Origin: an uncultured delta proteobacterium
GTDB lineage: Bacteria; Desulfobacterota; Desulfobaccia; Desulfobaccales; 0-14-0-80-60-11
Length of the DNA: 64,000 nt
Direction: 5' to 3'
Assembly: GCA_963701845.1 (NCBI GenBank)
Contig: CAVPBF010000006.1
Location: forward strand, 477,084 to 541,083
Shown here: piece after piece, positions 17,231-47,833 of the stretch
Layout: every line of letters begins with the position of its first letter
How positions within the stretch are numbered: position 1 is the first letter of the stretch
Position numbers and translations under genes: made by a program
The notes under the pieces: generated by a model
Databases searched by the model: none
What the model was told of the DNA's origin: nothing
What the model saw: only the letters and a program-made list of their open reading frames with translations

Positions 17231-20173
17231 TCAGGCGGACCGGAGAAACTCTTTGGCCAGGCGCTCCCAGCCTAATTCGGGGTACTGACCGTAGACGTCG
17301 TCGATGATCACCCCGCCGGACTGGAGAGTGGCGCCCACCGAGGGTTCCAGCATTCCTAGGAGCCTGAGGGACTCCTCTTCGATCCAGGCGGCGTTGCCCT
17401 CGCCAAAGGTCAGCTTTTCCAGGTCCGGCTTCAGGTTGGTGGCGGCCACGACCAGCAGCCAGCCCTCACCGTAAGGGTCGTCATGGGCCAGTTCAGGTCT
17501 CGCCAGGACCTGGGGATTCACCGCTTCGACGACACCGTCCAGAGGCGCCAGGACCGCGGCCGTTCCTCCCTGGCGACCCAGCGCCAGCGCCGCCTTATCA
17601 CGGCGAATTTCCTCCCCGATCACCGGCAGCCGAATTTCATCGCCGGGCCCCAGGACCTTCTGGGAAAAGTCATCCAGACCCAGGCGCACCCTGCCGCCAT
17701 GCTCCAGAGCCACCCAGGTATGACCCCGGTGGAGGTAACGGGAAGTCGGGACCTGCAGGCCGAAGACTTCCTCAAGTCGCTCGACCAGCTTGGCTAAATT
17801 GACGGCACACCCATGGTAGGCCGGCATCCCGGCGATGGGGTCCAGAGGCGAATTGACGAGGCGGTTAACCACGTCCTCCAGGAAGTGCCGCGGCAGGAAA
17901 GCCGCGCCCGGCCTGACCCGAGCGCTCATCCGGGCGGTGGCCGTGATGGCGCCCTGGCGGCTGCTAAACCTGATTGGTTCTCCCGACTGAATCCCCAGAT
18001 CCCGGGCATCCAGGGAATTGATTTCGATGCAGACCTCGCGGTCTTCCCGGGGGAGGGCGGAGTAACGCGGCATCCCGGCGCCGGTGAGATGCGGGGTGAA
18101 GCTGCTTCCGGTCGTCAGCCAGAAAGGATAGGCGGCGTCCGTTGCCGCGCTCTTTTGGCTGAGGTTGGCCAGCAACTGGTCCACCGCGTTGATCAAATCC
18201 CGGGGGGCGTTGGCGGCCAGGGAATGAAATAACAACCGGCCGGGATCGATGCCGGCCTCAGCCAGAAGCGTCTGCACCTGCTCCACCCCCCATTCGGCAA
18301 ACCGGTTGCCATGGGAAGATTGGCAATTTTCCCGGGGGCAGGAAAGGACCATCACGCCGTCGGCGCCCGCGGTGAAGGCCTGCAGCAAATAATCGGGGTC
18401 AACCTTGCCGGCACAGGGCACCTTGATGGGAGTGAAGCCCAAGGGCAGAGAGGCCTGATTCTGCTTCACCGCGGTTTGATAGGCTTCCCAGGCAGAGTTG
18501 CGGCACATGAAGGCCACGATGCGGGGGCTCAAGAGGGGGTCGAGGGTCGCCAATTGAGCCGCAAGCTGTTCGTCGGTGAAATTCCGGACCTGGATGGCGT
18601 CATTGGGGCACTGGCTGGCGCAAATGCCGCAGCCCTGGCAGGCCAGCTCATTGATAATGGCCCGATTGTCCCAAGTTATGGCGCCGTGAGGGCAGAGCCG
18701 GTAGCAGGTCAGGCAGAGGACGCAGCGGCCGCGGTCCACCGCGGCCCACCCCTGGGGAGCGACCGCCTCGCCCCGGCCCAGGAGGGTTTGAATCTCATTA
18801 ACCGCGGCGCTGACATCGGTGTTGGTCTCTTCCAGGTCCAGGATCCCCCGGCCCGGTCCGATGACATAAATGCCCCGGCGGGGGGTGGCCACCGGGGTGT
18901 GGTGCACGTTGCCGGACTGGAGAAAGCCCCCGGAGCCTAAGGGGAGGCGGAGCCGTTCGGCCAGCCCGGCGTTTGCCGCGGCGGCCTGGTAGGATTCATC
19001 GCAAGCCACCAGGTCAACCGCCAGACCCAGGTCCTCGCGGATCGTCGGCTCAAAGAAGCCAACCACCAGCCCCTCGTCCAGCACGCTGACGGCAGGAGAC
19101 TCGCTCAGCTTGATGAGCAGCATCCCGGCTTCCTGGTTGGCTCGCAGGGCCCGCGCCAGGCCCGGGCCCGCCAGCTTGGTGTTACCCACCAACAGGTAAA
19201 CCCGGCTGCCGGCCGCCAGCAGGCGGGAGGCCGCCTTGAGGGCTCGACCCAGGGCCAGGGGATGGCTCTCCCCCGCCAGGCCCACCAGGAGCGCGGCAGT
19301 TTCCGGGATTGGCGCTTCGGAGCCGCGGCTCAACCGCGCTTCCAGCCGGGTCTGGGAGACCACCCCCGGATGATCGGGGACGCGATAGCGGTGGGGGGCA
19401 GCTTCCATTAGCTGCAACTCGGGGGCCAGCACCAGCGCGCCAACCTGCTCGGTCACGCGGCCGTGCGGGGTATCCAGCCGCAGGGTAAAATTGCCGGTAA
19501 CGCCGCCTAGATCAACGATTTGGGCGGCACAAATCGTCTTGATAAGAGAGTGTTCCCGGGCCTGCCGGACCAGCCGGGCCATGGACTCAGAATCAGCCGC
19601 ACCTTCAGCATCCTCCAAGGCGAGGGGAGTGAGTCCCGGGTTGGGGCCGGCCAGAATAACCGGGTAGCCCAGCTGGGCCAATTCCCAGGCGGCTTGCAGA
19701 CCGGCGGCGGAATCACCCCAGACCAGGACCTGACGGGAAACGGGGATAGATTGAGGGACCTGGGGCCGGGCCCGGCTGACTTGCGAGGCCGCCAGGCGCA
19801 CCATTTCCAGAGCTTTGGCGGTCCGGGAGCCCGGGTCCGGGTGGCCCAGGGCCGCGGTCAGGTCCACGTGCATGAGGCATTCCGGGTTCAGCCCCAACTC
19901 GCCCGTTAACAGGCGGGCCACGCCGGCCCCGCGGTGCTCCGGGTCTTGGGCCGCGAGGACCACGGGATTTAGCTCCCGGTCCTGGCTCAGGAAGCGGCGC
20001 ACCAGCTCCTCTTGCTCGACGGTCGGCAGGGCCGGATCTACCGGCAACACCCGGCAGTTCGGCAAGTTCGCCACTGCCTGGGAAAAGTCTTGGGGATCGA
20101 GGCCGGCGCTAACCAGCTCCGGGCCATGCAGCACCAGGACATTCACCGGTTTCAACGCCTCGGAGAGATTCAT
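17231..20173 (-). CDS. multidomain redox fusion: degenerate HdrA-like module, 2x[4Fe-4S] ferredoxin, MvhD, FwdD-like molybdopterin-dinucleotide-binding barrel, GcvH-like domain
   Basis: Start set at MNLSEAL (ATGA overlap with the upstream stop at 20170). Ferredoxin CVLCLTCYRLCP/CQGCGICASQCP (about 18584-18736). MvhD RIVAFMCRNSAW...ADGVMVLSCPRENCQ (about 18164-18532). Molydop-binding-like EVCIEINSLDARDLGIQSGEPIRF (about 17789-18136). GcvH-like LHRGHTWVALE...DDPYGEGW (17234-17776). Confidence 0.75.
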   Translation of the reverse strand: MNLSEALKPVNVLVLHGPELVSAGLDPQDFSQAVANLPNCRVLPVDPALPTVEQEELVRRFLSQDRELNPVVLAAQDPEHRGAGVARLLTGELGLNPECLMHVDLTAALGHPDPGSRTAKALEMVRLAASQVSRARPQVPQSIPVSRQVLVWGDSAAGLQAAWELAQLGYPVILAGPNPGLTPLALEDAEGAADSESMARLVRQAREHSLIKTICAAQIVDLGGVTGNFTLRLDTPHGRVTEQVGALVLAPELQLMEAAPHRYRVPDHPGVVSQTRLEARLSRGSEAPIPETAALLVGLAGESHPLALGRALKAASRLLAAGSRVYLLVGNTKLAGPGLARALRANQEAGMLLIKLSESPAVSVLDEGLVVGFFEPTIREDLGLAVDLVACDESYQAAAANAGLAERLRLPLGSGGFLQSGNVHHTPVATPRRGIYVIGPGRGILDLEETNTDVSAAVNEIQTLLGRGEAVAPQGWAAVDRGRCVLCLTCYRLCPHGAITWDNRAIINELACQGCGICASQCPNDAIQVRNFTDEQLAAQLATLDPLLSPRIVAFMCRNSAWEAYQTAVKQNQASLPLGFTPIKVPCAGKVDPDYLLQAFTAGADGVMVLSCPRENCQSSHGNRFAEWGVEQVQTLLAEAGIDPGRLLFHSLAANAPRDLINAVDQLLANLSQKSAATDAAYPFWLTTGSSFTPHLTGAGMPRYSALPREDREVCIEINSLDARDLGIQSGEPIRFSSRQGAITATARMSARVRPGAAFLPRHFLEDVVNRLVNSPLDPIAGMPAYHGCAVNLAKLVERLEEVFGLQVPTSRYLHRGHTWVALEHGGRVRLGLDDFSQKVLGPGDEIRLPVIGEEIRRDKAALALGRQGGTAAVLAPLDGVVEAVNPQVLARPELAHDDPYGEGWLLVVAATNLKPDLEKLTFGEGNAAWIEEESLRLLGMLEPSVGATLQSGGVIIDDVYGQYPELGWERLAKEFLRSA

Positions 20174-21405
20174 GTCCTTGCCTCCAGATATTGGCGCACC
20201 TGGCGGACCGACTGGGTCGCCTGGGCGATGCATTCCAAAATGCTTTGAGGGCCGGTCGCGGTGCCGGCCAGGAAAACGCCCGGGGCTTCGCCGTTGCCTC
20301 CCTGCAAAAAGCCATCCGGCGTCAGTGACAGGTGCAGCATTGCCGCCAGCCTGGCATTGTCCGGCCCAGGGGCGATGCCCACCGCCAGGACCAGGAGATC
20401 GACCACCCGGGACAGGGCTTTGCCGCTGGCCTCGTCCAAAAAACGCAGCTTTAGACTCCCGTCCCCCGTGGCGTCCAGGTTGCCGGGGAGGGCCCGGATC
20501 AACTCCACTTCCCGCCGGGCGTCGGCCGCGAAATTCTGGGGATCAGGGCCAACATTCTGCAAATCCATGTAAAAAGTGGTCACCTGGCACTCCGGCCAAC
20601 GATGCCGGATCAGCCGGGCCAGGCGCAAGCCATAGGCGCAGCAGACCCGGGAGCAATACTGGTGCTCCTGGTCCCGGCTGCCCACGCACTGGATGAAGGC
20701 CAGACGCCGGACCGGCCGGCCGTCGCCAGGCCGGACCAGAGGCCCACCCTGCCGCATCATCTCCTCCAATTCCGAGCCGGTGATGACCTGGGGTGAACGG
20801 CTGTGAGCATAGACCGCCCGGGGAGCAGCCTGGGCAGGTTGATAACCGGTGGCCAGGATGAGGCTCGGGGTCGAAAGGGCCGCCACGGTCCCGGGCCGGG
20901 CCAGGTCGATGGCCCGGGTGGGGCAGAGGTCCTGGCAGCGGCGGCAGGAACCATCCTGAAAATAGAGGCAGGCGGCCGGATTCACGGCAAAGCGAGGATG
21001 ATTCTCAGCTGAGGGCGCGCTCAATATGCCCCCCTGGGCAGGACATTCGTCCAGGCAGAGACCGCAATTTATGCAGCTTTGGGGGTCGATGACCTGGGGT
21101 TGCGACTTCAAAGTCAGGTGCAGTAGACCATGGTCAGACCGGGTTTCCACCAGCTCCGTGTGCGCATACAGGGAGATCTCCGGTGCGGCAAGCAGGTCCC
21201 GCAAACCCTGTTCAACCCGGCAGGCCCCACATTTCTGGCAGACATCGGTGGCCTTGCAGCCGAAGCTGGCGGCCCGCCCGCCGAAAAAGGGGCTCTTCTC
21301 CACCAGGGCCACCGGGAGTCCCGCCCGGCTTAACTCCAAGGCCGCGGTAATCCCGGCGATGCCGCCACCCAGAACTACCACCGGATTAGTTTCAGCGTTT
21401 CTCAT
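20170..21405 (-). CDS. short HdrA/QmoA-like FAD-dependent oxidoreductase with inserted ferredoxin domain
   Basis: 411 aa with VVVLGGGIAGITAALEL dinucleotide fold, CINCGLCLDECP and CRRCQDLCP clusters, and the HdrA-type [20 protein letters not shown] motif. Confidence 0.75.
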   Translation of the reverse strand: MRNAETNPVVVLGGGIAGITAALELSRAGLPVALVEKSPFFGGRAASFGCKATDVCQKCGACRVEQGLRDLLAAPEISLYAHTELVETRSDHGLLHLTLKSQPQVIDPQSCINCGLCLDECPAQGGILSAPSAENHPRFAVNPAACLYFQDGSCRRCQDLCPTRAIDLARPGTVAALSTPSLILATGYQPAQAAPRAVYAHSRSPQVITGSELEEMMRQGGPLVRPGDGRPVRRLAFIQCVGSRDQEHQYCSRVCCAYGLRLARLIRHRWPECQVTTFYMDLQNVGPDPQNFAADARREVELIRALPGNLDATGDGSLKLRFLDEASGKALSRVVDLLVLAVGIAPGPDNARLAAMLHLSLTPDGFLQGGNGEAPGVFLAGTATGPQSILECIAQATQSVRQVRQYLEART

Positions 21406-21423
21406 GGGAGTTTCCTATTATTT

Positions 21424-22317
21424 TCAGGCACCCGCCGTCTCCAGAACCAGGGCCATCAAGTCGCCCCGGCCCCGGGCCTTCACGTAGACGCCGTCCGCGA
21501 GTTTTTCCTCTCTGATCTTTTTGAGCAGGCGGCCGGCCAGAGTCGCGCCCTTCCTTAAAATTTCTTCCTGATCATCTGCAGCCAGTTCTTTGACCACCTG
21601 GTCCGGCAGGGAATATACCTTCCGGTGTTCACCCCGGGCCGCCTGGTCCACTTCCGCGGCCTTAGGCACCTTGAGGCAGGCCAGCAGCTTCACCGTCTGC
21701 GGCTCCAGTGATTGCCGGAATTGACGGAGCTTCTCCAGGTCGAAAACAGGCGCGGTGATAAAAAATTCGGCTCCTGCCTCCAGCTTTTTCCTAACCTTAA
21801 GTTGCTGGGGACCCACCGGGTCGGCCTCAGGGATGAGGACCGCCCCCAGGCAGAAGTTGGGGTGGCCCTGCAGGGGAAGACCGGTGCTATCGTGACCTGC
21901 CATCATTCCCCGGGCAATTTGCAGCAGCTGCACCGAATCGGCGTCATAGACCGGCTTGGCGTCAGGATGATCGCCCAGGCTGACGAAATCGCCGCTCAAC
22001 GCCAAGATATTCTCCAGACCCAGGGCTCCGGCGCCCAGCAAATCGCTCTCCAAGGCCAGGCGGTTACGATCCCGGCAGGTCATGAGAAGCAAAGGTTCGC
22101 CCCCAGCTTCTTTGACCAGCCTGGCCGCGGCCAGGGCCGAGAGTTTCATCTTGGCATGCTCGTTGTCCGGAATCCCGAAGGCAGTCACCTTGCCATTGAG
22201 CGCTTTCAGCGGAGCCAGCATCCCCTCCAGATCGATCCCCTTGGGAGGTTTAATTTCCATCAGGATGGGGAACCGGCCGCCTTCCAAAGCTTCCCTGAGC
22301 TTACTCATGGACCCCAT
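21424..22317 (-). CDS. metF: methylenetetrahydrofolate reductase MetF (acetogen/Hdr-associated type)
   Basis: 297 aa MTHFR fold signatures (FPILMEIKPPKG, LLLMTCRDRNR, ENILALSGD). Directly follows metV. Confidence 0.85.
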   Translation of the reverse strand: MGSMSKLREALEGGRFPILMEIKPPKGIDLEGMLAPLKALNGKVTAFGIPDNEHAKMKLSALAAARLVKEAGGEPLLLMTCRDRNRLALESDLLGAGALGLENILALSGDFVSLGDHPDAKPVYDADSVQLLQIARGMMAGHDSTGLPLQGHPNFCLGAVLIPEADPVGPQQLKVRKKLEAGAEFFITAPVFDLEKLRQFRQSLEPQTVKLLACLKVPKAAEVDQAARGEHRKVYSLPDQVVKELAADDQEEILRKGATLAGRLLKKIREEKLADGVYVKARGRGDLMALVLETAGA

Positions 22318-22981
22318 ATCTCCTCTTATAACCCGGATGGATCACCGTCCCGGGGGTAGTGCCCGCGGCGTGAGGATGGAGCGGCAAGATCGGCTCGATC
22401 TGCCCCAGCCGTCCTGCCTGGGCCAACTTTTCATAAATCTCGCACCAGGCGCAGGCCCGGTCCGGATTGACCTCGCACTTCCCCTGGATGTTGCCGCCGC
22501 AAGGACCGTTGAGCAGCCCCTTGGGACACATGGTTTTCGGGCAAATCCCCCCGGTCACTCCCAGGTAACATTGGTGGCAGGCCCGGCAGCGCTCAGTGTA
22601 ATAGCCCGCGGCCTCGTTGACTCCGATGAAGGTGGTGTTGAGGGCCGGGAAGACCGGTTTCATCTGGGGCAGCGCGGCCAGAAACTGCACCCCGGCGCCG
22701 CAAGCCGTTGAGATAACCGCGTCATAATCAGCCGCGGCGTCGCCCAAGGGCCGGATAAATTCCAGGTCGCACTGGCGCTCCACCGTGATTTCCCCGATCT
22801 TCGGGTGCTTGCCAACTTGTCCCAGGGCCAGCTTCAGTTGCGAGGCCAGCAGGCCCACCTCTTTTTCGCCGCCCGCCAGGCACACCGCCACACAGGTGCC
22901 GCACCCGGCAATGAGGATCTTGTCAAAGGGGGCTACCGCCGCCTTGATTTCCGCAAAAGGTTTCCGCTCCGCGATAATCAT
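22301..22981 (-). CDS. metV: MetV, Cys-rich small subunit of methylenetetrahydrofolate reductase
   Basis: 226 aa with ILIAGCGTCVAVC and the C-terminal Cys cluster CRACHQCYLGVTGGICPKTMCPKGLLNGPCGG typical of the MTHFR C-terminal/MetV domain. ATGA overlap with mvhD. Confidence 0.8.
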   Translation of the reverse strand: MIIAERKPFAEIKAAVAPFDKILIAGCGTCVAVCLAGGEKEVGLLASQLKLALGQVGKHPKIGEITVERQCDLEFIRPLGDAAADYDAVISTACGAGVQFLAALPQMKPVFPALNTTFIGVNEAAGYYTERCRACHQCYLGVTGGICPKTMCPKGLLNGPCGGNIQGKCEVNPDRACAWCEIYEKLAQAGRLGQIEPILPLHPHAAGTTPGTVIHPGYKRRYGVHE

Positions 22982-23439
22982 CCTTGCACCGCCAGTTCTA
23001 GTTCTTCCGGGACCACCGCCCCTGGTTCCCGTATCGACACCAGGGGACTAGGGCCCAGAGCTTTAACTCTGTCAGTCATCTCTTTCACTGCGGCCACCCA
23101 TTTGGGGGCGTCCGAGGCGGCCACCTCATACATGACCAGGCGCTCCGCCCCCAGGCCGCACTCTTCCAGCAGATGCTGGGCGTATTCCACCCGTTCCCGG
23201 GCTCGGAGATTTCCCTCCAGGAAATGGCAACTCCCGGCCTCGCAGCCACTCACCATGATGCCATCGGCCCCGGCCTCAAAGCCCTTCAGGATGTGGATGA
23301 TGTCGATCCGGCCGGTGCACAGGTACTTGACGATGCGCACGTTGGCCGGGTACTGCATCCGGGCCGACCCCGCCATATCCGCGGCCGTGTAGGTGCAGTA
23401 GGTGCAAATCAAGGCCAGTATTTTGGGAGTAAATTCCAT
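22978..23439 (-). CDS. mvhD: MvhD-like [2Fe-2S] protein, Cys form
   Basis: ILALICTYCTYTAADMAGSARMQYPANVRIVKYLCTGRID...ADGIMVSGCEAGSCHF matches the MvhD/FlpD signature. Cys occupies the position that is TGA in the paralog at 38370-38900. Confidence 0.85.
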   Translation of the reverse strand: MEFTPKILALICTYCTYTAADMAGSARMQYPANVRIVKYLCTGRIDIIHILKGFEAGADGIMVSGCEAGSCHFLEGNLRARERVEYAQHLLEECGLGAERLVMYEVAASDAPKWVAAVKEMTDRVKALGPSPLVSIREPGAVVPEELELAVQG

Positions 23440-23448
23440 TTGTTATCC

Positions 23449-26400: not shown

Positions 26401-27928
26401 GAGTGAGTTTGATGCCATCCGCGTCAGTGATGAATTTGAGGTTGGTCCGCTGGCCGATGGCCAGGATGACGATATCGGTGCTCCGAGTAGTGGTTTGATC
26501 TTCCAGATAGGTGGGAGCGAAGCGCCCTTGCGCATCAAAGACCCGTTCCACGGCCCTGAGTTCGAGGCCGCTGACCTTGCCCTCCCGAGCCAGGATCTGC
26601 TTGACGCCCCACCGGTGGCTGATCTCGATGCCTTCCTGCTCGGCCTCCGCCACTTCCCAGGAGGAAGCCGGCATCTCTTCCCGGGTTTCGAGCGAGATCA
26701 AGGTGACCTCGCCCCCCTGGCGCCGGGCCGTGCGGGCCACGTCCATGGCCACGTTGCCGCCGCCGACGACCGTCACTTTTTGGCCCTGGAAATCGAACTT
26801 TTGACCCGAGGCCGAGTCTTTGAGATATTCGACGCCCCAGAGGACTCCCTGGGCGTCCGCGCCGGGCACCGGCAGGCGGATGGAGTCTTGCGCCCCGACG
26901 CCCAGGAAGACCGCCCGGAAGCCTGCGGTGGTGAGCAGATCGTTGATGGTGCGGCCGGGGCCGCCGATGGGGGAGTTATAGTTGATCTGCACCCCCAGGC
27001 GCTGGATGTAGTCCACTTCCCGTTGCAGGACATCCTTGGGCAGGCGGTATTCCGGAATGCCGTAGCGCAGCCAGCCGCCGGCCGCCGCGGCGGCCTCGAA
27101 GATCACCGCCTGATAGCCTTGGAGGGCGAGATGATAGGCGCAACTTAAACCGGACGGCCCGGACCCGATAATGGCCACGGCCTCGGAGCGCTCAGGCACC
27201 TCGGGCACCGGCAGCGTCTGCCAGTCCACCGCATCGGCCACAAAGCGCTTCAGGCTGCAGATGGCCACGGGTTCGTCCACTTCCTGGCGCCGGCAGTCCG
27301 TCTCGCAGGGATGGGGGCAGATGCGGCCGATGGTGCCGGGGAGCGGCAGCCGGTCCAGGATGAGGGACAGGGCCTCGGGAAATTTCCCGGCCTTGATGAG
27401 CTGCACATAGCCCTGCACGCTCAAATTCGCCGGACAGCCACGCACACAGGGCCCCCGATCCAGTTTCTTGATGGCAAAGGTGGCCGGGATCGCCTGGGGG
27501 AAGTGCCGGTAGGCGGCATGGCGCACGCCCAGGCCTGCATCGAAAGACGAAGGCAGTTCCACCGGGCAGGCCTCGGCGCAGGCCCCGCAGGCGTTGCACT
27601 TGGCCCGGTCGATGTAACGGGGCTCCCGGCGGAGGGTGACGGTGAAACGGCCCGCCTCGCCTGCCACCGCGGCCACCTCGGACTGGGTGATGATCTCGAT
27701 GTCCGGGTGCCGGGCCACCTCGATGAGCTTGGGGGAGATCAAGCAGGTGGAGCAATCGTTGGTGGGGAAGGTCTTGTCCAACTGGGCCATGACCCCGCCG
27801 ATGGAGATGTCTTTCTCCACCAGATAGACCTTGAAACCCGCATTCGCCGCGTCCAGGGCGGCCTGCATGCCGGCGATGCCGCCCCCCACCACGGAAATGG
27901 CGCCGATTTTGGTGTGGTCAGTGGGCAT
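23449..27928 (-). pseudogene. hdrA: giant HdrA-GltD/NfnB-like-HdrA fusion (HdrL-like), Cys form, one frameshift as sequenced
   Basis: ORFs 25979-28138 and 23449-26016 are collinear with the intact paralog at 42146-46609. Start [22 protein letters not shown] at 27928 (TAATG junction with hdrB). Motif TNDCSTCLISPKL. The junction reads FTEA / EALAEAARCLNCGGCSEC, and deleting one G of GCAGGAGG (about 26070) restores the frame. The first ORF ends in TAA, so this is not a Sec codon. Confidence 0.85.
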
Positions 27929-38308: not shown

Positions 38309-38373
38309 GGTGCGCGCCGCGCACCATTTTCAATCTTTGATTTGAACAAGTTGGTGCGCAGTGCGCACCCTAC
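38309..38373. repeat. two REP-like palindromes inside the operon
   Basis: GGTGCGCGCCGCGCACC (38309-38325) and GGTGCGCAGTGCGCACCCTAC (38353-38373). The second overlaps the mvhD stop codon at 38370-38372. Confidence 0.8.
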
Positions 38374-38900
38374 ATCTGCCCGGCAGGCCGGCCGCAGCCA
38401 CAGCCGCCTCCCTGCCCGGCCAGGGGCGGCGGGGCTAAATCCAGGCTCTCCAAAGGCCGCTCATAGTTCCGGGCCAGGGGGTTGGGCCCCAGGTCCCGAA
38501 TCTGTTGGGTGAATTCAGTCACCACCTGGACAAACTTGTTGGCTTCGGCGGAGGAAATCCATTCCAGGCGTAATCTGCCCCCCAGGCCGACAAAGGGCAA
38601 TAATTCCTGCAAGAAGGACATCCGCTTTTTAGTCATGTGATTACCGTACAGGTAATGGCAGTCTCCCAGGTGTCAGCCGGCCACCAGGATACCGTCGGCC
38701 CCGCTCTGCAAGGCCCTCAGGATGTGATGCGGCGAGACCGTGGCGGAGCACATGACCCGGAGCAGCCGGATATTGGCCGGATACTGCAGGCGGCTGACCC
38801 CGGCCAGATCGGCGGCCCCGTAAGCGCACCAGTTGCAGACGAAGGCCAGCAGTCTGGGCTCAAAAGTTTCCACGTCCATGGCTTCTCCTTGGCGAGTCAT
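38370..38900 (-). CDS. mvhD: MvhD-like protein, selenocysteine form (VhuD-like)
   Basis: ORFs 38673-38900 and 38370-38636 share one frame: ...ADGILVAG-U(TGA 38673-38675)-HLGDCHYLYGNH.... The Cys paralog has SGCEAGSCHF at this position. Confidence 0.8.
38673..38675 (-). other. in-frame TGA read as selenocysteine (MvhD)
   Basis: Aligns with the Cys of the GC-x-G-x-CH motif in the paralog at 22978-23439. Hairpin AUUACC-UGUAC-GGUAAU lies 16 nt downstream (38640-38656). Confidence 0.7.
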
Positions 38901-41900
38901 TAGCGCGCTAAAGCAGTCTTGATCTGGGCATACATTTGCCGGTTATTGAACCCCATCAGCATGGGCGCTTCGCACGGACAGGCGGCGGCGCAGGCCCCGC
39001 AACCCTTGCAGAGGGCCTCATTAACCAGGGCTATCCCCCGCGCTGCATCAAACCTGATGGCCTGATAAGGGCAGACATTGACGCAGATCTGGCAACCGCA
39101 GCAAAGCTCCGAGGCGATGCGCGAGACCAGGCCGCTCACCTTGATGCTGCCCCGGGCCAGGACGGTGGCGGCCCGGGCCGCGGCGGCCTGCGCCTGGGCG
39201 ATGCTCTCTTCCAGCGGTTTCGGATAATGGGCCATGCCGCAGAGAAAGATGCCGTCGTTGGCAAAATCCACCGGCCGCAGCTTCTGATGGGCCTCGAGGA
39301 ACCAGCCGTCGCCATCCAGCGGCACCCGGAACATCTGCGCCAGCTGATGATCCCGGTGGGATTCGATGGCGGCTGCCAGGCAGAGGAGGTCCAGGTCCAT
39401 CTCCACCGGGCGACCCAGGATAGGATCGACAAAACTCAGGGTGAGACGTCCATCGCCACCAGTCACCACGGGTTTGTCCTGCCGGGAATAGCGGGCGAAC
39501 AGCACCCCTTCATTCCGGGCGGCGGCGTAGAGGTCTTCCCGGGGGCCATAGGTGCGCAGATCCCGGTAGAGGACGATGACGTTGGCCTCCGGGCGGCGAC
39601 GCTTCAACACCAGGGCCGCTTGCACCGAGTGGGTGCAGCAGACCTTGGAGCAATAATGATGAGTTTCGTCTCGAGAGCCGACGCATTGAATAAAGGCAAT
39701 ATTTTCAACCTTTTCCAGGCGCTGGTCCCGGCGGCGCAACAGTTCGTCCAACTCGAGCTGGGTCACCACCGCCGGGTGTTCACCGTAGAGATATTCTTGC
39801 GGCTGATATTCCTTGGCGCCGGTGGCCAGAACGGCGACGCCGTGCTCGATGAGTCGGGACGAGCCAGAGGTTCGCACCTTGGTTTGAAAATTACCGATAA
39901 AGCCCTGCACTTCGGCGATGGAGGTATTGAGATGCACCGACACCTTCGGCTCAGTTTCGACTTCTTGCGTCAACTTCTCGAGGAAGCTGCCGACATCCTC
40001 TCCCTTATAGGTATGGAGGAGCCGCCTGGCGGCGCCGCCGAGCCCAGCGCTCCGCTCCACCAAATCCACCGGATAGCCTTGCCGAGCCAGATTCAGGGCG
40101 GCGGTCATCCCGGCCACACCCCCGCCCACCACCAGGGCGGTGGGGGTCACCGGCAATTCCTCCTCGTCGAGCGGGGCCAGGAGGGCGCTTTTGGCCACCG
40201 CCATCCGCACCAGGTCCTTGGCCTTCTCCGTGGCCACCTCCGGCTCCCGGGCATGGACCCAGGAGTCCTGATTACGGATGTTGGCCATCTCGAACAGATA
40301 CTTGTTTAGACTGGCGTTAATCAGGGTTTCCTGAAACAGCGGCTCGTGGGTGCGGGGTGAACAGGCGGCCACCACTACCCGGTTCAGTCCCTGCTCGGCG
40401 ATGATTTCGCTCATCCGGTCCTGGGTGTCCTGGGAGCAGGTATAGAGGTTCTCTTCCACATGGACCACGTGGGGAAGGGTGCGGGCATACTCCGCCACTT
40501 CCGGGACCTTGATGACCCCGCCGATATTGATGCCGCAATTGCAGACGAAGACGCCGATACGCGGCGGCTCCTGAGCTACGCGGCGCTCCGGCGGATAGGT
40601 CTTGGCCTGCACCAGGGTAAAACGCTGGTCACTCAGTTCACTGGCCACGGCCCCGGCCGCGGCCGAAGCCTCCATGACCGAATAGGGGATGTCTTTGGGG
40701 CCGGCCAGGGCGCCGCACACGTAAATGCCGGGCTTTGAGGTAGCCACCGGGGCAAAGGAGGTGGCGTCGACGAAGCCGTGCCGATCCACCTCCACACCCA
40801 ACTTTTCAGCCAGGGCCCGGAAATCTTTGGGCGCCTCCAGGCCGATGGACAGGACCACCAGGTCGTAGGGTTCCTGCTGCATGACGCCGCTTTCGTCCAC
40901 GTAGGCGATCTGGACCTGTTTGGTTTCCGGGTCCGGAGGCAAAAGGGAATGCACCCGGGAGCGCACAAAGCGCACCCCTTCGTGTTTCGCCTTCTCGTAA
41001 TAGCGCTCGAAATCCTTGCCGTAGGTGCGCATGTCCATGAAGAAGATGGTGGTTTCCAGATCATCCCCGGCATGCTCCTTGGCGATGATCGCCTGTTTGA
41101 GGGCATACATGCAGCAGACGCCGGAGCAATAGGAATGCGTACCGGGCTTGGTGTCCCGGGAGCCGACGCACTGCAGCCAGGCAACCCGTTGAGGCGAGGC
41201 CTGGTCCGCCGGCCGCACCAGGTGGCCGCCGAAGGGCCCGGAGGCGCTCAGGATGCGTTCAAATTCCAGGCTGGTGACTACCGCGGGGTGCTTGCCATAG
41301 CCAAACCCACCCAGGATTTTCGGGTCGAAAGGCTGGAAACCGGCCGCCAGGACCACCGCGCCCACCTGTTTCGTCAGGATTTTCTCAGAGTCGGCCAGGT
41401 TAATGGCGCCGCTGGGGCAATGCTTTTCGCAGGCCTTGCAGGTGCCCTTCTTGAAATAGATGCAATTATCTTGATCGATGGCGTACTTCAGGGGCACGGT
41501 CTGGCTGTACTTGAGATAAATCGCCTTGCGCTTGGCCAGACCCACATTGTATTCATCGGTCACCTTCTTGGGGCATTTCTGGGCGCAGATCCCGCAGCCG
41601 ATGCACTTGGACATATCCACATAGCGGGGCTTTTGCTTGAGGATGGCCGTAAAATTGCCGGCCTCGCCGGAAAGACTTTCCAACTCGGTAAGCGTCAATA
41701 GTTCGATGTTTAAGTGCCGACCGCACTCAACCAATTTGGGCGAGATGATTCACATGGCGCAGTCATTGGTGGGGAAGGTCTTGTCCAACTGCGCCATGCT
41801 GCCGCCGATGCCGGCACTTTTTTCCACCAGATAAACGTAGAAGCCGGAATCGGCCAAATCCAGCGCCGCCTGCATCCCGGCAATACCGCCGCCGACCACC

Positions 41901-41944
41901 AACACCGCACCCAATTTCTGTCCCGGGAAAAGGGCTTCACTCAT
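38900..41944 (-). CDS. hdrA: double-module HdrA (QmoA-like FAD module plus full-length HdrA), selenocysteine-containing
   Basis: ATG at 41944 after [20 protein letters not shown](TGA 41750-41752)[12 protein letters not shown]. The downstream ORF 38900-41734 is in the same frame. HdrA signatures [24 protein letters not shown] and [20 protein letters not shown], plus C-terminal ferredoxin motifs. Confidence 0.85.
41750..41752 (-). other. in-frame TGA read as selenocysteine (HdrA)
   Basis: Occupies the second Cys position of TNDC-x-x-C (TNDCSTC in the Cys paralog at 23449-27928). Confidence 0.75.
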
Positions 41945-42145
41945 GGAACCTTCCTCCAATCGGTCTCTCCAGCAATCCCCAGGCCAGATCTACAAAATCA
42001 GCTCCCTGGCGGCTTAGGGGAACAGGGAAAATGTCCCAACCCAGCAATATCCGGGATGGGCATCAGGCGTTCTCTGCTGTCGCCATGCTTAATTATAAAA
42101 TAAGTTTCGAAATATCGCAACTAATTCAGGGGCTCGCCTGCCCGT

Positions 42146-45100
42146 CTAAAGCAAGCCCAAGGCGGCTTCGACCTGGGCCCCGATCTGCGGCAGAGAATAG
42201 CCGGCGACCTGGATCCCCTGTTTCGGACAGGTGGCCATGCAGGAGCCGCAACCCTTGCAGAGGGTTTCACTAATTTCCACCGTTTTTTTGACCTGGCCCT
42301 GTTTCATGTATTCCAGCAGGGTGATGGCCTGGAAGGGACAGCCATCCACACAAAAGGCGCAACCATCGCAATTTTCATCCATGGGGGTGGCGATGTTGGC
42401 GCCCAGTTCCAGATAATCTTTGGATAAGATGGTAGCAGCACGGGCCGCGGCAGCCAGTCCCAACCTGACCGAATCTTCCAGCGGCTTGGGGTTGTGGCAG
42501 AGGCCGGCCAGGAAGATACCCTCGGTGGCGCAGTCCACCGGCCGGATCTTGGCGTGGGCCTCGCTGAAGAAGCCTTCCTCGTTCAAGGCCACTTTGTACA
42601 TTTCAGCCAGCTGGCTATTATCCCGGGGTACGATGGCGCTGGCCAGGGTCAAAAGATCCACGGTCAACTCCACCGGCCGTTGCAGGATGTGATCCTGTAC
42701 CCGGATGCGGATTCTGCCGTCGGCCTCCTCCACCTGGGGCAGGTCATCCAGTTGGTAGCGGATGAAGATCACCCCTTTCTGGAGCGCCTGGTGATAAAGA
42801 AACTCGCGTTCGCCATAGGTCCGCATATCCCGGTAAAGAATATAGACCTCCATATCGGGATTGATCTCTTTGAACTTGAGGGCGTTGTCCACGGAACTGG
42901 TGCAGCAGACCCGACTGCAGTAAGGCCGCTCCGGAATCCGGGAGCCGACGCATTGAATGAAGGCCGCAGCCTGGGCCTTCCTGATGCGGCGGCTATTGGT
43001 AGCGATCTCCCGGTCCATATCCAGGGAGAGAAAAACGTTGGGGTTTTGCCGGTACAGGTATTGCCCGTCGGGGCGGTAGGGTTCGGCGCCGGTGGCCAGC
43101 ACCACCACGCCGTGGCGGATGAGGGCGCCGTTGCTCAGGCGGGAAGTGAAGTTGCCGACGGCGCCGCCGGCCTCGCTGACGGTGGACTCGAAGTGCACAT
43201 GGATCCGGTCGTGTTCCTGGACTCGATCGATGAGTTCATCCAGATGGGGTTTAACCTGCTCGCCCCGCCAGGTGGTGTGCAGCTTGAGGGCATGGCCGCC
43301 CAGGCGGTCGGTGCTTTCCGCCAATTCCACCCGATAGCCCTGATCCGCCAGGGCCAGGGCCGTGGTGATGCCGGAGACGCCGCCCCCCACCACCAGGGCC
43401 TGGTGATTGACCCCCACCGAGAGATATTCCAGAGGCTGGATCAACCGGGCCTTGGCCACCGCCATGTTCACCAGGTCCATGCATTTTTGGGTAGCCGCCT
43501 CCCGCTGGCCCTGGTGCACCCAGGTGCACTGATTGCGGATATTGGCCATTTCAAAGAGATACTTATTCAAGCCGGCGTTGCGGAGCATGTCTTGGAAGAT
43601 GGGCTGATGGGTGGTAGGACTGCAGGCCGCCACCACCACGCGATTAAGGTTATGCTCCCGGATCATTTGGATCATGAGGTTTTGGGCGTCTTCCGAACAG
43701 GTAAAGAGATTTTCCTGAACGTAGGCGACCTCGGGGATGTCCCGGGCATAGGCCGCCACCGCCGGCACATCGGCAATCCCGCCGATATTGATGCCGCAAT
43801 TGCAGATGAAAACGCCGATCCGGGGCGTCTCTGCGGTCACGTCCCGCTCGGGAGGGTAGACGGTCTGTTTCAGCAGGCTGCCCCGGGCCGGAGCCAGTTG
43901 CCGGGTGGCCGCAGCCGCGGCGGCGCTGCCTTCCCGCACCGATTGGGGGATATCCTTGGGACCGGTAAAGACGCCGCAGGCATAGATGCCGGGCCGGGAA
44001 GTGGCCACGGGGTCGAAGCAGCTGTGCTCCGCAAAATTGAAGCGGCTCAGCTGCACCCCCAGGGTTTCGGCCAACTCCCGGGTCGCCGGAGGAATCACCA
44101 TGCCGGTGGCCAGCACCACCAGGTCGAAGGTTTCAGCGGTGCGCTCCCCCGCCTCGGTGACATAGGCAATCCGCAGGTCCCCGCTGTCCCCCAGGGCTTC
44201 CACGCCCTGAATCCGGGAACGGATCAGGCGCGTGCCCTGGCTCTTGGCCCGCTGGAAATATTTCTCAAAGTCCTTGCGGGGCGTCCGCATGTCCATATAA
44301 AAGATCGTCATGTCCAACTGCGGGCCGACGTGTTCCCGGGCGATGAGGGTCTGCTTGAGGGAGGTCATGCAGCAGACCGACGAGCAGTACGCCTGGGAGC
44401 CTTCCCGGTCGCTGCGCGACCCCACGCACAAAATCCAGGCGATCTTTTGGGGCTCCCGGTTGTCAGACCGCCTCCGGACATGGCCCTGAAACGGCCCGCC
44501 GGGGCTCAAGAAGCGTTCGAATTCCAGGGTGGTGACCACATTGGGGTGGACGCCGTAAAGATAGTTGAGACCCCGGGGATCGAAGGGCTGAAAACCGGTG
44601 GCCAGGATGACGGAGCCGACCTCCAACTGCGTGGTTTCCGGGATCTGGCGGTGGTTCAAGGCGCCGGGCAGGCAGGCCCGCACGCACTCCCAACATTCGG
44701 AGCAGACCCCGCAATTGAGGCAGCGGCCGGCCTCGGCCTGGGCCGCTTCCGGCGTCAATCCCAGGCAGATCTCCTGGAAGCCCTGCACCCACTCCTCCAG
44801 AGGGATGGAAGGCATAGAGGCTCGGGTTTGTTTGGGCTGGTCTTTGGGGATCGGCTGCCATTTCCCACCCGCCGGCAGCCTCAGCGGGAACTGCCGTCCG
44901 TCTTTTAAGTCCTGACCGCGCAGGTAACGGTCAATGGAGATGGCCGCCTCCCGGCCGCCGGCGATGGCGGCGATGGCGATATAAGGGCCGGTAACGACGT
45001 CACCGCCGGCGAACACCCCTTTGCGGGTGGTGGCCAGGGTGTCGGGATCGGCTTTGATCAGGCCCCGGGGGGTCAGCTCAATGCCGTCGGATACGGTGAG

Positions 45101-46609
45101 AAAGCGCAGGTTGGAACTCCGCTGGCCGATGGACATGATGACGATATCGGCGTCCAGGGTTTCCAGCTGGTCTTCAAAATACTTGGGGGCGAAGCGTCCT
45201 TGCTCGTCAAAGATCTGATCCACCTTCTTCAGCCAGACGCCCTTCACCTGGCCGCCGTTGGGGAGAATCTGCTTGATGCCCCAGCGGTAGCGGATTTCGA
45301 TGCCTTCCTTGACAGTCTCTTCCAGTTCCCAGGGAGAGGCCGGCATCTCGTCGGGGCCTTCCAGGCAGACAATGGTCACCTGGGTGGCGCCTTTCCTGAG
45401 GGCGATGCGGGCCGCGTCGATGCCGACGTTACCGCCGCCGACCACCACCACCTTTTTCCCGGCGGTGGGGGCGATACCCGTGGCGGCTACTTCCTTGAGA
45501 TAGTCCGCCGCCCAGACCACCCCCTCGGTCTCGATGCCGGGCACCCGGATATGAACGGATTCCTGACAGCCGACGCTAATGAAGACCGCGGGATAGCCGT
45601 CCCGGACGATGAGGTCGCCGACGCTGCGGTCCGGGGTGATGGGCGAATTGCAGCGAATATCCACTCCCAGCCGCCGGATGTAGTCGATTTCCCGCTGCAG
45701 GACGGCCCGGGGCAACCGGTATTCCGGCACCCCGTAGCGCAGCCAGCCGCCGGGCTCGGCCGCGGCCTCGAGGATCACCGGCCGGTAGCCCATCAGGGCC
45801 AGGTGATAGGCGCAACTGAGGCCGCCCGGCCCGGAACCGATGATAGCCACCTCTTCATCCCGCTTGTCGATCTCCGGGACCGGCAGGGTATCCCAATCCA
45901 CCTGGTCGGCCACGAAACGCTTTAAGGCGCAGATCGACAGCGGTTCGTCCAGGTCCTGCCTCCGGCAGTTGACTTCGCAGGGGTGGGGGCAGATGCGCCC
46001 CAGGGTGCCGGGCAGGGGTAGTCTTTCCATGATGAGGCTGAGGGCTTCCTGAAATTTGCCCGCCTTGATCAACTGGATATAACCCTGGGCATTGACGTTG
46101 GCCGGGCAGGCGCGGATGCAGGGAGCCCGGTCGTATTTCTTGATGGCAAAGGTGGCGGGAATGGCCTGGGGATAGGCGCGGTAAATGGCCTTGCAATCGT
46201 CGAGCCCCAGATTGAAGACGTCCGGGGTGCTCACCGGACAGGCCCGGGCGCAGTCGCCGCAGCCGGTGCACTTGGAGGCGTCGACGTAGCGCGGCTCCTT
46301 TTTCAGGGTAACGGTAAACTTACCTTCCTCGCCGGAAACCTCCTGGAGTTCGGTGAGGGTGTGCAGCTCGATGTTGGTGTGCCGGCCGACCTCGACCAGC
46401 TTGGGCGAGATAATTCACATGGCGCAGTCGTTGGTGGGAAAGGTCTTGTCGATCTGCGCCATGGTGCCGCCGATGCTGGGACCTTTTTCCACCAGGTGGA
46501 CATAAAACCCTGAATTGGCAGCATCCAGCGCAGCTTGCATGCCGGCGATGCCACCGCCGACCACCATGACTGAACCACGTTTCTCCTCAAGGGGTTGGAC
46601 CGGCAACAT
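42146..46609 (-). CDS. hdrA: giant HdrA-GltD/NfnB-like-HdrA fusion (HdrL-like), selenocysteine-containing
   Basis: ATG at 46609 after [17 protein letters not shown](TGA 46415-46417)[12 protein letters not shown]. In frame with ORF 42146-46234. Central GltD-like part ([37 protein letters not shown]), then a complete HdrA module. Confidence 0.85.
46415..46417 (-). other. in-frame TGA read as selenocysteine (HdrL)
   Basis: Same TNDCAM-U-IISPKL context as at 41750-41752. Confidence 0.75.
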
Positions 46610-46689
46610 ACAATTCTCCTCTTCTGAACTCAGGTTACCGAGGCCCATGGCCCCGGGCCAGGCGGTTAGCTCCCAACATGCTGAATCCC

Positions 46690-47592
46690 CTAACTCTGTG
46701 CGGCAGTAAACGGCAGCAGACAGGAACGGACAAACCTGAGCTGTTTTTGGGTGAGATCCCCGATGTGCTCATTCAACCACGGCAAATCGCCCGAAAGGAT
46801 GGCGGTTACGGCCTCGGGGGACAGCTTATAGGCGTCCAGGGCCTCGGTCTGCATCTCGACCAAGGTCCGCCGAAACTCCTGATCTTCGGAGGTGCGATTC
46901 AGCACCCGAAAGACTTCCCGCTTCAACGCTTCATGATCCACCCCCGAGCTTTCCCGGGGCTCCACAGCTGAGGCTGTCGCGCCCTTTCTCCGCCAGGTTC
47001 TGGTCAAGATGGGTAGGAAAAAATCCTGGACCAGGGGTCGCCAGCCCAAATCCGGATAATGGCCGTAGACATCGTCGACGATGGCGCCGCCGTCCGGCAG
47101 GGTAACACCGATGGCGGTGTCCATGAGACTCAGCAACCGGTGGGACTCTTGATCGATCCAGGCGGCACTGGCCTCTCCGGATAACAAGTTGGCCAGATTG
47201 CGCTCGAGATTGGCCGGGTTAACCAAAAACAGCCAGCCCTCGCCGTAAGGATCTTCGTGGATCAGGCCGGGCTTTTGGCATACCTTGGGGTTGACTACCT
47301 CAATAGTGCCATCAACCGGCGCCAGGAACGGAGCCTTGTGTCCCTGCCTGATCTGGGCCATGAAGATGTGGTCCTGAAAATAAGTCTTGCCGACGTCAGG
47401 TAACTTGAGGCCGTCCGCCGGCCCCAGGATCTTCTGAGAGAAGTCATCCAACCCCACCCGGACCCGGCCGCCGCTTTCCGGCACTGCCCAGGCGTGGCCC
47501 CGATGCAAATAATAGATACTGGTAGGCACTTGGAAGCCGAAGACCTCCGTCATTTGAGGGCGTTCCACCGGATCGATATTTTTATTAGACAT
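46690..47592 (-). CDS. GcvH-like protein (subtype 2) with an extra C-terminal helical domain
   Basis: Start at MSNKNID (47592) after AAGGAGAG. The upstream ATG at 47643 would lie at the predicted transcription start. [62 protein letters not shown]. The roughly 90 aa tail contains [17 protein letters not shown]. Confidence 0.75.
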
Positions 47593-47654
47593 TATCGGTC
47601 TCTCCTTTTGTGGTTGTTGCCAGGGTTTGGGGGCAAGAGTCAACTTCTAACGAA

Positions 47655-47669
47655 GCAAAGGATGTGCCA
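47655..47669 (-). promoter_or_regulatory. sigma54 (-24/-12) promoter for the gcvH-like/hdrL/hdrA/mvhD/fdhA/kinase/regulator operon
   Basis: The minus strand reads TGGCACATCCTTTGC, an exact TGGCAC-N5-TTGC. Confidence 0.7.
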
Positions 47670-47749
47670 GCCTGGATATATTGACATATATAGCTGATAA
47701 TTCTGCATATAACCTCCAACAGGCAGAGAATACCTCCCTTAAGGTCTCA

Positions 47750-47766
47750 TGTCTGATAATCCAACA
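47750..47766. promoter_or_regulatory. candidate enhancer (UAS) dyad, site 4
   Basis: TGTCTGATAATCCAACA, the same TGT-N11-ACA motif as at 29.5-29.8 kb. About 80 nt upstream of the -24 element. Confidence 0.5.
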
Positions 47767-47816
47767 ATTAAGATCCTTTAGCTGTTAACTTATGAATAAT
47801 TATATGAATTTCATCT

Positions 47817-47833
47817 GTTGGAAATTACAACGG
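47817..47833. promoter_or_regulatory. weaker candidate enhancer dyad, site 5
   Basis: TGTTGGAAATTACAACG resembles the reverse complement of site 4 (TGTTGGATTATCAGACA). Confidence 0.3.

Follow-up and report, generated by a model that had tools for sequence, protein, structure and literature searches.

A methylene-tetrahydrofolate (methylene-THF) reductase complex composed of HdrCBA-MvhD-MetVF was reportedly described in Moorella thermoacetica by Mock et al. in 2014; to our knowledge, sigma-54 control of this complex has not been described. In Desulfobacterium autotrophicum HRM2, a tandem hdrL/hdrA-mvhD-fdhB-fdhA arrangement encodes HdrA, HdrL, MvhD and FdhA with selenocysteine (Sec), and Cys paralogs are encoded elsewhere (PMC2702500). 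LbpA, a protein of the sulfur-oxidising sHdr system, has the GcvH fold and is genetically tied to Hdr-like complexes, outside glycine cleavage (Cao et al. 2018, PMC6067878). In all 95 LbpA sequences, the lipoyl lysine is retained, as are two signature Cys, one N-terminal and one C-terminal, and a dedicated lipoate ligase (lplA) and radical-SAM genes accompany these proteins (PMC6067878). A divergent paralog of the H-protein that likewise functions outside glycine cleavage is GcvH-L, encoded in the SirTM/macrodomain operon of Streptococcus and Staphylococcus (PDB 5a35; PMC4518038). Here we analysed a 64-kb stretch of DNA from an uncultured delta proteobacterium (contig CAVPBF010000006.1; hereafter, the window), in which three transcription units carrying Hdr, MvhD, MetFV, Fdh and GcvH-like genes each lie behind a predicted sigma-54 promoter, and compared it with 75 related loci from species-representative genomes to which the window proteins were mapped (designated by L numbers). 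Unless stated otherwise, frequencies among loci were counted on the 45 loci of at least 15 kb. The individual enzymes are already known from D. autotrophicum and Moorella, as an earlier note on this DNA had recognised.

Based on this analysis, we consider it likely that the three units form a two-component sigma-54 regulon run by a system encoded at its edge. The pattern TGGCAY-N5-TTGCT has exactly three matches in the window, where 0.06 were expected from shuffled sequences and none of 100 shuffles reached three. The matches are located at 29463-29478(-), 29935-29950(+) and 47654-47669(-), that is, one before each of unit 1 (17231-29383, minus strand), unit 2 (29987-31572, plus strand) and unit 3 (31711-47592, minus strand), and the distances from the promoter end to the start codon are 80, 37 and 62 nt, respectively (starts at 29383, 29987 and 47592). 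They have the fixed spacing between GG (-24) and GC (-12) that characterises sigma-54 promoters (consensus TGGCAC-N5-TTGCW). All three are exact matches and are kept in related loci, so that the assignment of one sigma-54 promoter to each unit, made in the earlier note, stands: promoter P1 (TGGCATATGCCTTGCT), which drives unit 1, has an equivalent site before hdrC in L003; the 16-mer of P2 (TGGCACATTCATTGCT), which drives unit 2, is identical or near-identical in L002, L003, L007 and L017; and P3 (TGGCACATCCTTTGCT), which drives unit 3, is kept in L009, L011 and L035. The window itself does not contain rpoN.

The same note had proposed a common dyad upstream of each promoter. The literal 14-mer given there was only weakly enriched in the window when up to three mismatches were allowed (8 matches, against 3.7 expected); therefore, a weight matrix was built. 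The exact pattern TGTNG-N7-CNACA was also too strict, with 2 matches in the window against 0.6 expected. The resulting 19-bp palindromic matrix has the consensus TTGTTGGATAATCCAACAA, i.e., TGT-N11-ACA, and at a threshold of at least 11 bits it finds six sites across the whole window, all of them in the three regulatory regions and two per promoter. Counting from the T of TGGCA, the two dyads of P1 are centred at -87 (29556-29574, TTGTCGGATAATCCCACAA, 22.7 bits) and -153 (29622-29640, TTGACGGATAATCAGACAA, 14.7 bits). The proximal and distal dyads of P2 are centred at -99 (29827-29845, CTGTGGATTTATCCGACAA, 19.7 bits) and -167 (29759-29777, TCGTAGGAATATGCGACAT, 17.4 bits), while those of P3 are centred at -89 (47749-47767, 21.0 bits) and -155 (47815-47833, 20.0 bits). 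Each promoter is thus preceded by two candidate activator sites within the range of about 80-200 bp upstream that is expected for sigma-54 promoters. The paired dyads lie about 66 bp apart, and this spacing is kept across related loci. Orthologues of the distal P2 dyad, of the form TCGTAGGAATTT(A/C)C..ACAA, are present in L002, L003, L007, L008 and L017. The divergent units 1 and 2 share an intergenic region of 603 bp that holds four of the dyads. Since the literal dyad is weakly enriched, its significance rests on position, pairing and conservation across genomes, and on these grounds the common dyad is confirmed.

Two additional searches gave nothing that we retain. An integration host factor (IHF)-like sequence, WATCARNNNNTTR, has its sole window match at 29593-29605, between the dyads of unit 1, and was rejected because matches in 5 of 35 related promoter regions did not differ significantly from the 8% found in AT-matched controls. 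A search of the whole window with Rfam at gathering thresholds gave zero matches, with neither a riboswitch nor a catalogued selenocysteine insertion sequence (SECIS).

The association between promoter, dyads and GcvH-like genes extends well outside the window. In the 1.27 Mb formed by the window and the related loci, there are 54 exact sigma-54 sites, 35 of which lie no more than 700 nt upstream of a GcvH-like gene, and most of the remainder precede amtB/glnB genes. These amtB/glnB-type promoters (L029, positions 1450 and 3366, with equivalents in L031, L032, L034, L042 and L047) have no dyad; they represent the classical nitrogen regulon and serve as an internal contrast. When the matrix was derived solely from the six window dyads, 94% of 33 other promoters had an upstream site of at least 10 bits and 73% had a second one, whereas the corresponding values for control windows were 2.4% and 0.6%. 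Conversely, the related loci contain 81 dyads of at least 16 bits; an exact sigma-54 site follows within 260 nt in 50 cases, and nearly all of the other 31 lie a short distance before a GcvH-like gene with a promoter that does not fit the strict pattern. The recurring core of these loci consists of a sigma-54 promoter followed by one to four GcvH-like genes, arranged convergently or divergently with a kinase-activator operon, often then with a Peptidase_M54 gene. This core is found in the cultured Desulfobacca acetoxidans DSM 11109 (CP002629, at about 1.145 Mb), where the locus (L080) has dyads at 9495 and 9561 and TGGCATATTCTTTGCT at 9671, and also with homologs of only 36% identity.

The candidate regulator is encoded at the end of unit 3. 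The NtrC-type sigma-54 activator (31711-33057, minus strand; Pfam and NCBIfam) is made up of a receiver, an AAA+ domain and a Fis-type helix-turn-helix (HTH), recognised by Pfam as Response_reg, Sigma54_activat (235 bits), AAA_lid_14 and HTH_8. In its translation, the loop with the usual sequence GAFTGA reads GAFTDA and Walker A reads GETGTGKE; for AtoC, NtrC and ZraR, its scores do not reach the equivalog thresholds. The adjacent histidine kinase (33044-35317, minus strand; Pfam) is cytoplasmic, with a Rossmann-like N-terminus, two Cys-containing PAS domains, HisKA and HATPase. It has no membrane segments, its Rossmann-like N-terminal stretches give weak GFO_IDH_MocA and NAD_binding_3 matches, and a C-x13-C-x6-CP motif is present in each of the two PAS domains; judged from its sequence, these features suggest nucleotide, redox or metal sensing. 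An NtrC-type activator lies beside GcvH-like genes in 35 of the 45 loci, with an ortholog of at least 60% identity in 31, and an ortholog of the PAS kinase is linked to them in 32. The HTH segment of the activator is nearly invariant in Desulfobaccales and has diverged in Desulfobacterales, where the dyad changes too. This parallel change is consistent with binding of the activator to the dyad, short of proof. Conserved synteny thus agrees with the earlier view of this pair as the obvious candidate regulator, dyad binding itself being inferred.

The gene order fdhA-kinase-activator is kept in many genomes, in line with the placement of the two regulatory genes in the third unit; co-transcription is possible, although the 84 nt that separate fdhA from the kinase gene contain a sigma-70-like site, ATGAAA-17-TATTAT with an extended -10 (35377-35405, minus strand). 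Therefore, the two-component genes may have a constitutive promoter of their own. Directly after the activator gene, most related loci, including that of D. acetoxidans, carry a gene for an archaemetzincin-like Peptidase_M54 (L014, 5282-5920; L031, 10643-11278; L072, 3360-3950; L078, 12074-12550; L080, 10839-11477). This gene is absent at the corresponding position of the window (31573-31710), where only 138 nt separate the activator gene from the GcvH-like gene.

Four GcvH-like domains are encoded in the window, at least one per unit, as the earlier note had counted. Unit 2 consists of two such genes, one for a 211-aa protein with the H-protein fold and a C-terminal extension (29987-30622, plus strand; Pfam GCV_H, 73 bits) and one for a 292-aa protein with a Cys-rich N-terminus (30694-31572, plus strand; GCV_H). 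Unit 3 starts with the gene for a 300-aa protein that has an extra tail of about 107 aa (46690-47592, minus strand; GCV_H), and the unit 1 copy is part of a 980-aa fusion protein. All four domains exceed the gathering score of GCV_H. In the NCBIfam gcvH equivalog model TIGR00527, they reach 55-71 bits, below the cut-off of 116 bits, and the models NF045810 (GcvH_rel_desulf) and TIGR03077 (not_gcvH) were rejected as assignments, with 23-38 bits against cut-offs of 144-150. Residues 110-292 of the 292-aa protein are modelled by AlphaFold with a predicted local distance difference test score (pLDDT) above 90, and Foldseek superimposes the model on the solved H-proteins 3a8j, 1onl and 3klr with a TM-score of about 0.9 and a root-mean-square deviation of 1.2-1.6 Å.

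The canonical lipoyl lysine of H-proteins, in the sequence E-S-V-K-A at the tip of a hairpin, aligns to Gly in all four window copies. The description of these proteins as lysine-less therefore holds for the canonical position but not for the hairpin as a whole, because three of the four copies have a Lys one or two residues further on. Among 373 domains of the family, the canonical position is occupied by Lys in 11 and by Gly in 244, and 250 have a Lys somewhere in the hairpin. A basic residue one or two positions past the canonical site is common, not conserved, and the fused window copy reads GGT there. On this alignment, the GcvH-like proteins would be unable to carry lipoate at the canonical site. 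Additionally, neither GcvT nor GcvP turned up among the examined open reading frames (ORFs) of the window or in the annotated neighbourhoods of the related loci. Nearly all members are annotated in databases as 'glycine cleavage system protein H', which, on their sequences, appears to be a mis-annotation.

A C-terminal extension of about 60 mostly helical residues is conserved over at least 150 family clusters at 50% identity (W..E..RL......G.....GG.......G..P...W..L...F) and is matched by no Pfam model and no solved structure; searches of the PDB by sequence and by fold returned canonical H-proteins only, and no structure with the extension. In many members, the N-terminus also contains C-x12-C-x5-C-x2-C modules, one to three per protein, with invariant Cys (C12, C25, C31 and C34 in the 292-aa protein). 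In the 292-aa protein (30694-31032, plus strand), the second module is shortened to three Cys (CRLMQTRHCHEC), and the 211-aa protein, the 300-aa protein and the fused domain have no such modules. The tail of the 300-aa protein (46690-47013, minus strand) is kept in the orthologs of L004, L009, L011 and others, its sole match being a sub-threshold one to PF14407 (Frankia_peptide, E 0.006). Even with E values up to 10 allowed, Pfam assigned neither the Cys-rich module nor the C-terminal extension nor this tail to a credible family. There are 680 homologs of the 211-aa protein, and an exhaustive profile search gave 124 clusters (50% identity) at E 1e-30 or better; most of the best 150 family representatives match through the C-terminal extension. 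The family is spread over Desulfobaccales, Desulfacinum, Desulfosoma, Desulfobacterales and some metagenome-assembled genomes (MAGs) of Myxococcota, and its members include proteins with membrane segments and others joined to the HdrA C-terminus.

Unit 1 is a tightly packed minus-strand cluster of overlapping or abutting genes, the gene calls of which were confirmed by Pfam and NCBIfam. It starts with HdrC-like (28766-29383; two 4Fe-4S clusters) and HdrB-like (27928-28782; CCG domains) proteins, both assigned by Pfam, followed by the Cys form of HdrL, in which HdrA is fused to an NfnB/GltD-like NAD(P)H module (23449-27931; Pfam), MvhD (22978-23439; FlpD, 156 bits), MetV (22301-22981; DUF5981, the methylene-THF reductase C-terminal domain) and MetF (21424-22317; MTHFR). 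These adjacent, one-strand genes in the order hdrC, hdrB, hdrA-type, mvhD, metV, metF place unit 1 in the HdrABC-MvhD-MetFV type, the complex being recognised from the genes alone. The unit continues with a short QmoA-like flavoprotein of 411 aa related to HdrA (20170-21405; Pfam and NCBIfam) and ends with the 980-aa fusion (17231-20173; Pfam), which combines a QmoB-like core of HdrA-like, ferredoxin and MvhD domains with a molybdopterin-dinucleotide-binding barrel and the GcvH-like domain. Residues 1 to about 670 of the fusion match full-length HdrA chains in fold (Foldseek, E 1e-29). Its homologs come in three lengths: about 676 aa, with only the HdrA-like, ferredoxin and MvhD domains, some of them labelled QmoB by JGI; about 790 aa, with the barrel added; and about 975 aa, with both the barrel and the GcvH-like domain. 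The gene order from hdrC to metF is repeated in L060-L068 and L081.

Two observations on unit 1 concern its reading frames and promoters. The frame of HdrL is broken near 26060-26075 (minus strand), where the protein reads ...EINQGFTEAGGPSRSG... in one frame and continues as ...ALPRQEALAEAARCLNCGGCSEC... in another; this is either a one-base assembly indel or a real pseudogene, and several related loci from long-read MAGs have similarly fragmented matches. In L066 (7425) and L067 (7521), the gene for the QmoB-like/GcvH-like fusion is preceded by a separate sigma-54 promoter and by dyad-like sequences that lie within the metF-qmoA-like cluster; the window has no such internal site.

Downstream of its GcvH-like gene, unit 3 encodes, on the minus strand, Sec forms of HdrL (42146-46609, in-frame TGA at 46415-46417; NCBIfam), HdrA (38900-41944, TGA at 41750-41752; NCBIfam) and MvhD (38370-38879, TGA at 38673-38675; Pfam), an Fe-S protein at the FdhB position (37472-38290; Fer4 matches only, with conserved synteny to fdhA) and a Sec form of cytoplasmic FdhA (35402-37444, TGA at 37040-37042; Pfam). 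The TGA codons of hdrL, hdrA, mvhD and fdhA fall at Cys positions of the unit 1 paralog or of the family, as in NDCAM-U-IISPKL compared with NDCSTCLISPKL of the unit 1 paralog, or VAG-U-HLGDCHY compared with VSGCEAGSCHF; therefore, the HdrL, HdrA, MvhD and FdhA of unit 3 are selenoproteins, and one regulon appears to drive a Sec set together with a Cys set. FdhA has its TGA in the context HCARL-U-HSS and lacks a twin-arginine leader. A strong hairpin lies directly 3' of this codon (-26 kcal/mol, z -2.4) in a SECIS-like check made on FdhA alone. Together with the Pfam and NCBIfam matches, the in-frame TGA codons bear out the gene content listed in the earlier note (HdrA/HdrL, MvhD, HdrBC, MetFV and Sec-FdhA). 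A 95-aa reading frame, 'orf95' (46303-46590, minus strand), was rejected as a gene, being a wrong-frame ORF over the N-terminus of Sec-HdrL (true start near 46609), and its tblastn matches reflect DNA conservation only.

Starting from the observed motifs and their positions and conservation, gene content, fold, lysine loss, synteny and fusions, we lean, with some reserve, towards a two-component sigma-54 regulon that co-expresses a lipoate-free accessory GcvH-like protein with bifurcating Hdr modules. The cytoplasmic PAS kinase would probably sense a redox, nucleotide or metabolite signal, as its Rossmann-like and Cys-containing PAS domains and its lack of membrane segments suggest, and would phosphorylate the NtrC-type activator. 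Dimers of the activator would then bind the two TGT-N11-ACA dyads about 66 bp apart, with centres near -90 and -155, at each of the three promoters, and the bound activator would oligomerise and drive the ATP-dependent opening of these promoters. The predicted targets are the hdrCB-hdrL-mvhD-metVF cluster with its QmoA-like and QmoB-like genes, i.e., a methylene-THF reductase/Hdr complex of the Wood-Ljungdahl pathway; the pair of GcvH-like genes; and a GcvH-like gene followed by the Sec-containing hdrL-hdrA-mvhD-fdhBA. In this way, the Cys-type MetFV-Hdr cluster, the Sec-type Fdh-Hdr cluster and the four GcvH-like domains would be co-induced, and the GcvH-like proteins would be made only while the regulon is on. 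As for what these proteins do, the most likely answers, taken jointly, are that they are lipoate-free accessory or docking subunits of HdrA/MvhD-type complexes or, alternatively, small-ligand binders of these flavin-based bifurcating complexes; the accessory or docking role is the best supported but is proposed only tentatively. Its support comes from neighbourhood frequency and from fusions, which argue for a physical or functional tie to HdrA-type modules. HdrA/HdrL, MvhD, FdhA or MetF genes lie within 10 kb of GcvH-like genes in 31 of the 45 loci, the GcvH-like domain is fused independently to the C-terminal ferredoxin domain of HdrA in the proteins P0160, P0164 and P0531, and a Lys-less GcvH repeat is fused to an FAD-oxidase/CCG protein in P0147.

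Several points weigh against this account. The dyad matrix was refined on the same regions on which it was then scored, a circularity that the control with the matrix seeded from the window lessens, not removes. The view is that of a 64-kb window, and other activators elsewhere in the genome are possible. Many GcvH-like operons are isolated from Hdr genes, none of which occurs within 10 kb of them (D. acetoxidans; L016, L023 and L037). L081, from a Thermodesulfobacteriota MAG, contains an hdrCB-hdrL-mvhD-metVF-qmoA-like-qmoB-like cluster with neither the GcvH-like domain nor the dyads, which means that the domain was added in a particular lineage to a MetFV-Hdr cluster that already existed. 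Considering both the stand-alone operons and L081, the GcvH-like protein is not an obligatory Hdr subunit. The 'constant' companionship asserted in the earlier note thus survives as frequent linkage and as HdrA fusions, but not as a rule. Finally, the AlphaFold model of the 980-aa fusion has a predicted TM-score (pTM) of 0.54, with the GcvH-like part at pLDDT 35-70 behind a low-confidence linker of about 45 residues, so no docking surface can be read from it.

The neighbourhood survey that the earlier note had proposed found the expected Hdr, Mvh, Fdh or MetF genes, but the steadiest neighbour of the GcvH-like genes is the kinase-activator pair, often together with Peptidase_M54, and this also holds in distant lineages. 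This constancy speaks for a different role, in which the GcvH-like proteins belong to the signalling circuit as co-sensors or feedback modulators of the PAS kinase and NtrC activator, and the Hdr, Fdh and MetFV operons are additional targets. The many GcvH-like pairs that are stand-alone two-gene operons and still have a sigma-54 promoter and dyads point the same way, as do the N-terminal modules with four invariant Cys, which could, for example, report the redox state. Nevertheless, we regard this role as unlikely: the repeated covalent fusions to HdrA-type and MvhD-containing proteins favour a physical tie to redox enzymes, none of the 150 best representatives is fused to a kinase or activator domain, and several paralogs per genome, some of them without Cys modules, would be unusual for a dedicated signalling partner. 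The Cys modules admit yet another reading, in which their CxxC is cycled by HdrBC, as DsrC is by DsrK, so that the Cys-rich proteins would be redox substrates or carriers with the H-fold only as a handle. The modules are invariant, occur up to three times per protein and match no known family, and we know of no established physiological partner of bacterial HdrBC in MetFV-Hdr complexes. However, half of the paralogs have no Cys modules, the second module of the window copy is down to three Cys, four-Cys modules bind Zn or Fe-S more often, and HdrB/C genes are present in only 10 of the 45 loci, which together leave this reading very little probability.

The hairpin lysines described above, the HdrB CCG protein of unit 1 and the precedent of Hdr-like complexes for which GcvH-like proteins are essential (PMC6067878) would fit proteins that are cofactor carriers after all, with the displaced Lys lipoylated or acylated by a dedicated ligase to yield an LbpA-like dithiol/disulfide substrate for HdrBC. 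The family does not behave as such carriers would. Its hairpin Lys is replaced by R, N, H or T in other members and by GGT in the fused copy, and it is missing from many distant members. In lipoyl domains, displacement of the target Lys by one position abolishes lipoylation. The canonical Lys and the two signature Cys retained throughout LbpA are both lacking in the GcvH-like family, and the examined window ORFs and the annotated neighbourhoods showed neither a lipoate ligase nor radical-SAM maturation genes. Thus, we consider a carrier of this kind highly improbable. Returning to the accessory role at Hdr modules, its boldest form would make the lysine-less GcvH-like proteins, some of them with four-Cys modules that contain CxxC, the missing physiological partner of the bacterial HdrA/HdrL-MvhD(-HdrBC) bifurcating complexes, a lipoate-independent counterpart of the LbpA-sHdr pairing that acts as a carrier, gate or docking adaptor coupling MetFV/Fdh modules to their acceptor and is deployed by a redox-sensing sigma-54 two-component system conserved across Thermodesulfobacteriota; we mention it as a speculation that is probably wrong in at least some part.

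In sulfate reducers that oxidise acetate or grow autotrophically, the Wood-Ljungdahl pathway operates near the thermodynamic limit, and flavin bifurcation based on Hdr/MvhD is used. The complete subunit composition of the bacterial MetFV-Hdr and Fdh-Hdr complexes, their second electron acceptor and their regulation are all unsettled, and the present findings bear on these points by offering a conserved, dedicated regulator with a predicted readable operator and a conserved accessory protein family. This family is now mis-annotated; at a minimum, several hundred database entries need re-annotation. The module is available in a cultured organism, D. acetoxidans DSM 11109. If the GcvH-like proteins are partners of Hdr complexes, the H-protein fold would have a second use in Hdr chemistry, one that is independent of lipoate.

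Two other regions of the window are mentioned for completeness. At 16327-17275 (plus strand), two overlapping ORFs without a Pfam match look, from their translation only, like one nucleotidyltransferase-type gene split between frames, possibly by another assembly indel. At 50203-54232 (minus strand), downstream of a Usp gene, there are genes for a Fer4_11 protein, a 512-aa Fer4_8/Fer4_17 protein and a 303-aa protein without a match; the set consists of Fe-S and probable membrane proteins and may be another redox complex.

The type of regulatory circuit and the enzyme modules are known, and what is new here is an unstudied family derived from the H-protein. Neither this family nor sigma-54 control of Hdr modules is described in the literature searched, which covered few subscription journals, in agreement with the earlier failure to match the wiring or the family to a described system. 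With the Moorella complex, unit 1 has its core in common, in the identical order hdrC, hdrB, hdrA-type, mvhD, metV, metF; it differs in having HdrL, i.e., HdrA with an NfnB-like NAD(P)H module, in place of HdrA and in the addition of QmoA-like and QmoB-like proteins, the latter carrying, in Desulfobaccales, the molybdopterin-binding barrel and the GcvH-like domain. The resemblance of unit 3 to D. autotrophicum extends to the tandem hdrL/hdrA, mvhD, an fdhB-like gene, cytoplasmic fdhA and the Sec forms, whereas the description of that genome contains no occurrence of either a GcvH-like gene or sigma-54 control (PMC2702500).

The NifA site is TGT-N10-ACA, and the TGT...ACA half-sites of the window resemble those of NifA. 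As in regulons of the NtrC/NifA type and in those that Desulfovibrio vulgaris controls through sigma-54 (PMC4641369; OrpR, PMC8359166), a -24/-12 promoter is preceded by paired dyads about 80-170 bp upstream, and an activator with a receiver, an AAA+ domain and a Fis-type HTH is encoded beside its targets. In contrast, the window dyad has N11 spacing, its own consensus and a new target set (GcvH-like with Hdr/Fdh/MetFV). The paper on the sigma-54 regulome of D. vulgaris mentions neither Hdr nor GcvH, and this consensus, spacing and target set are not found there (PMC4641369).

GcvH-L matches the window GcvH-like protein in structure (E 4e-6). Unlike that protein, GcvH-L is lipoylated and ADP-ribosylated, and it has neither the C-terminal extension nor an Hdr or sigma-54 context. 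The nearest precedent for the window family is LbpA, likewise a protein of the GcvH fold linked to Hdr-type genes. No member of the BPL_LplA_LipB family was found in the annotated related loci, so the clustering of LbpA with shdr, lplA and radical-SAM genes has no parallel there. The window family differs from LbpA in having Gly in place of the lysine and no conserved Lys or Cys in the core domain, and in adding the C-terminal extension of about 60 aa and optional four-Cys N-terminal modules. Its partners are the HdrA/HdrL/MvhD bifurcating modules of a sulfate reducer, or a two-component system, and its genes lie behind sigma-54 promoters.

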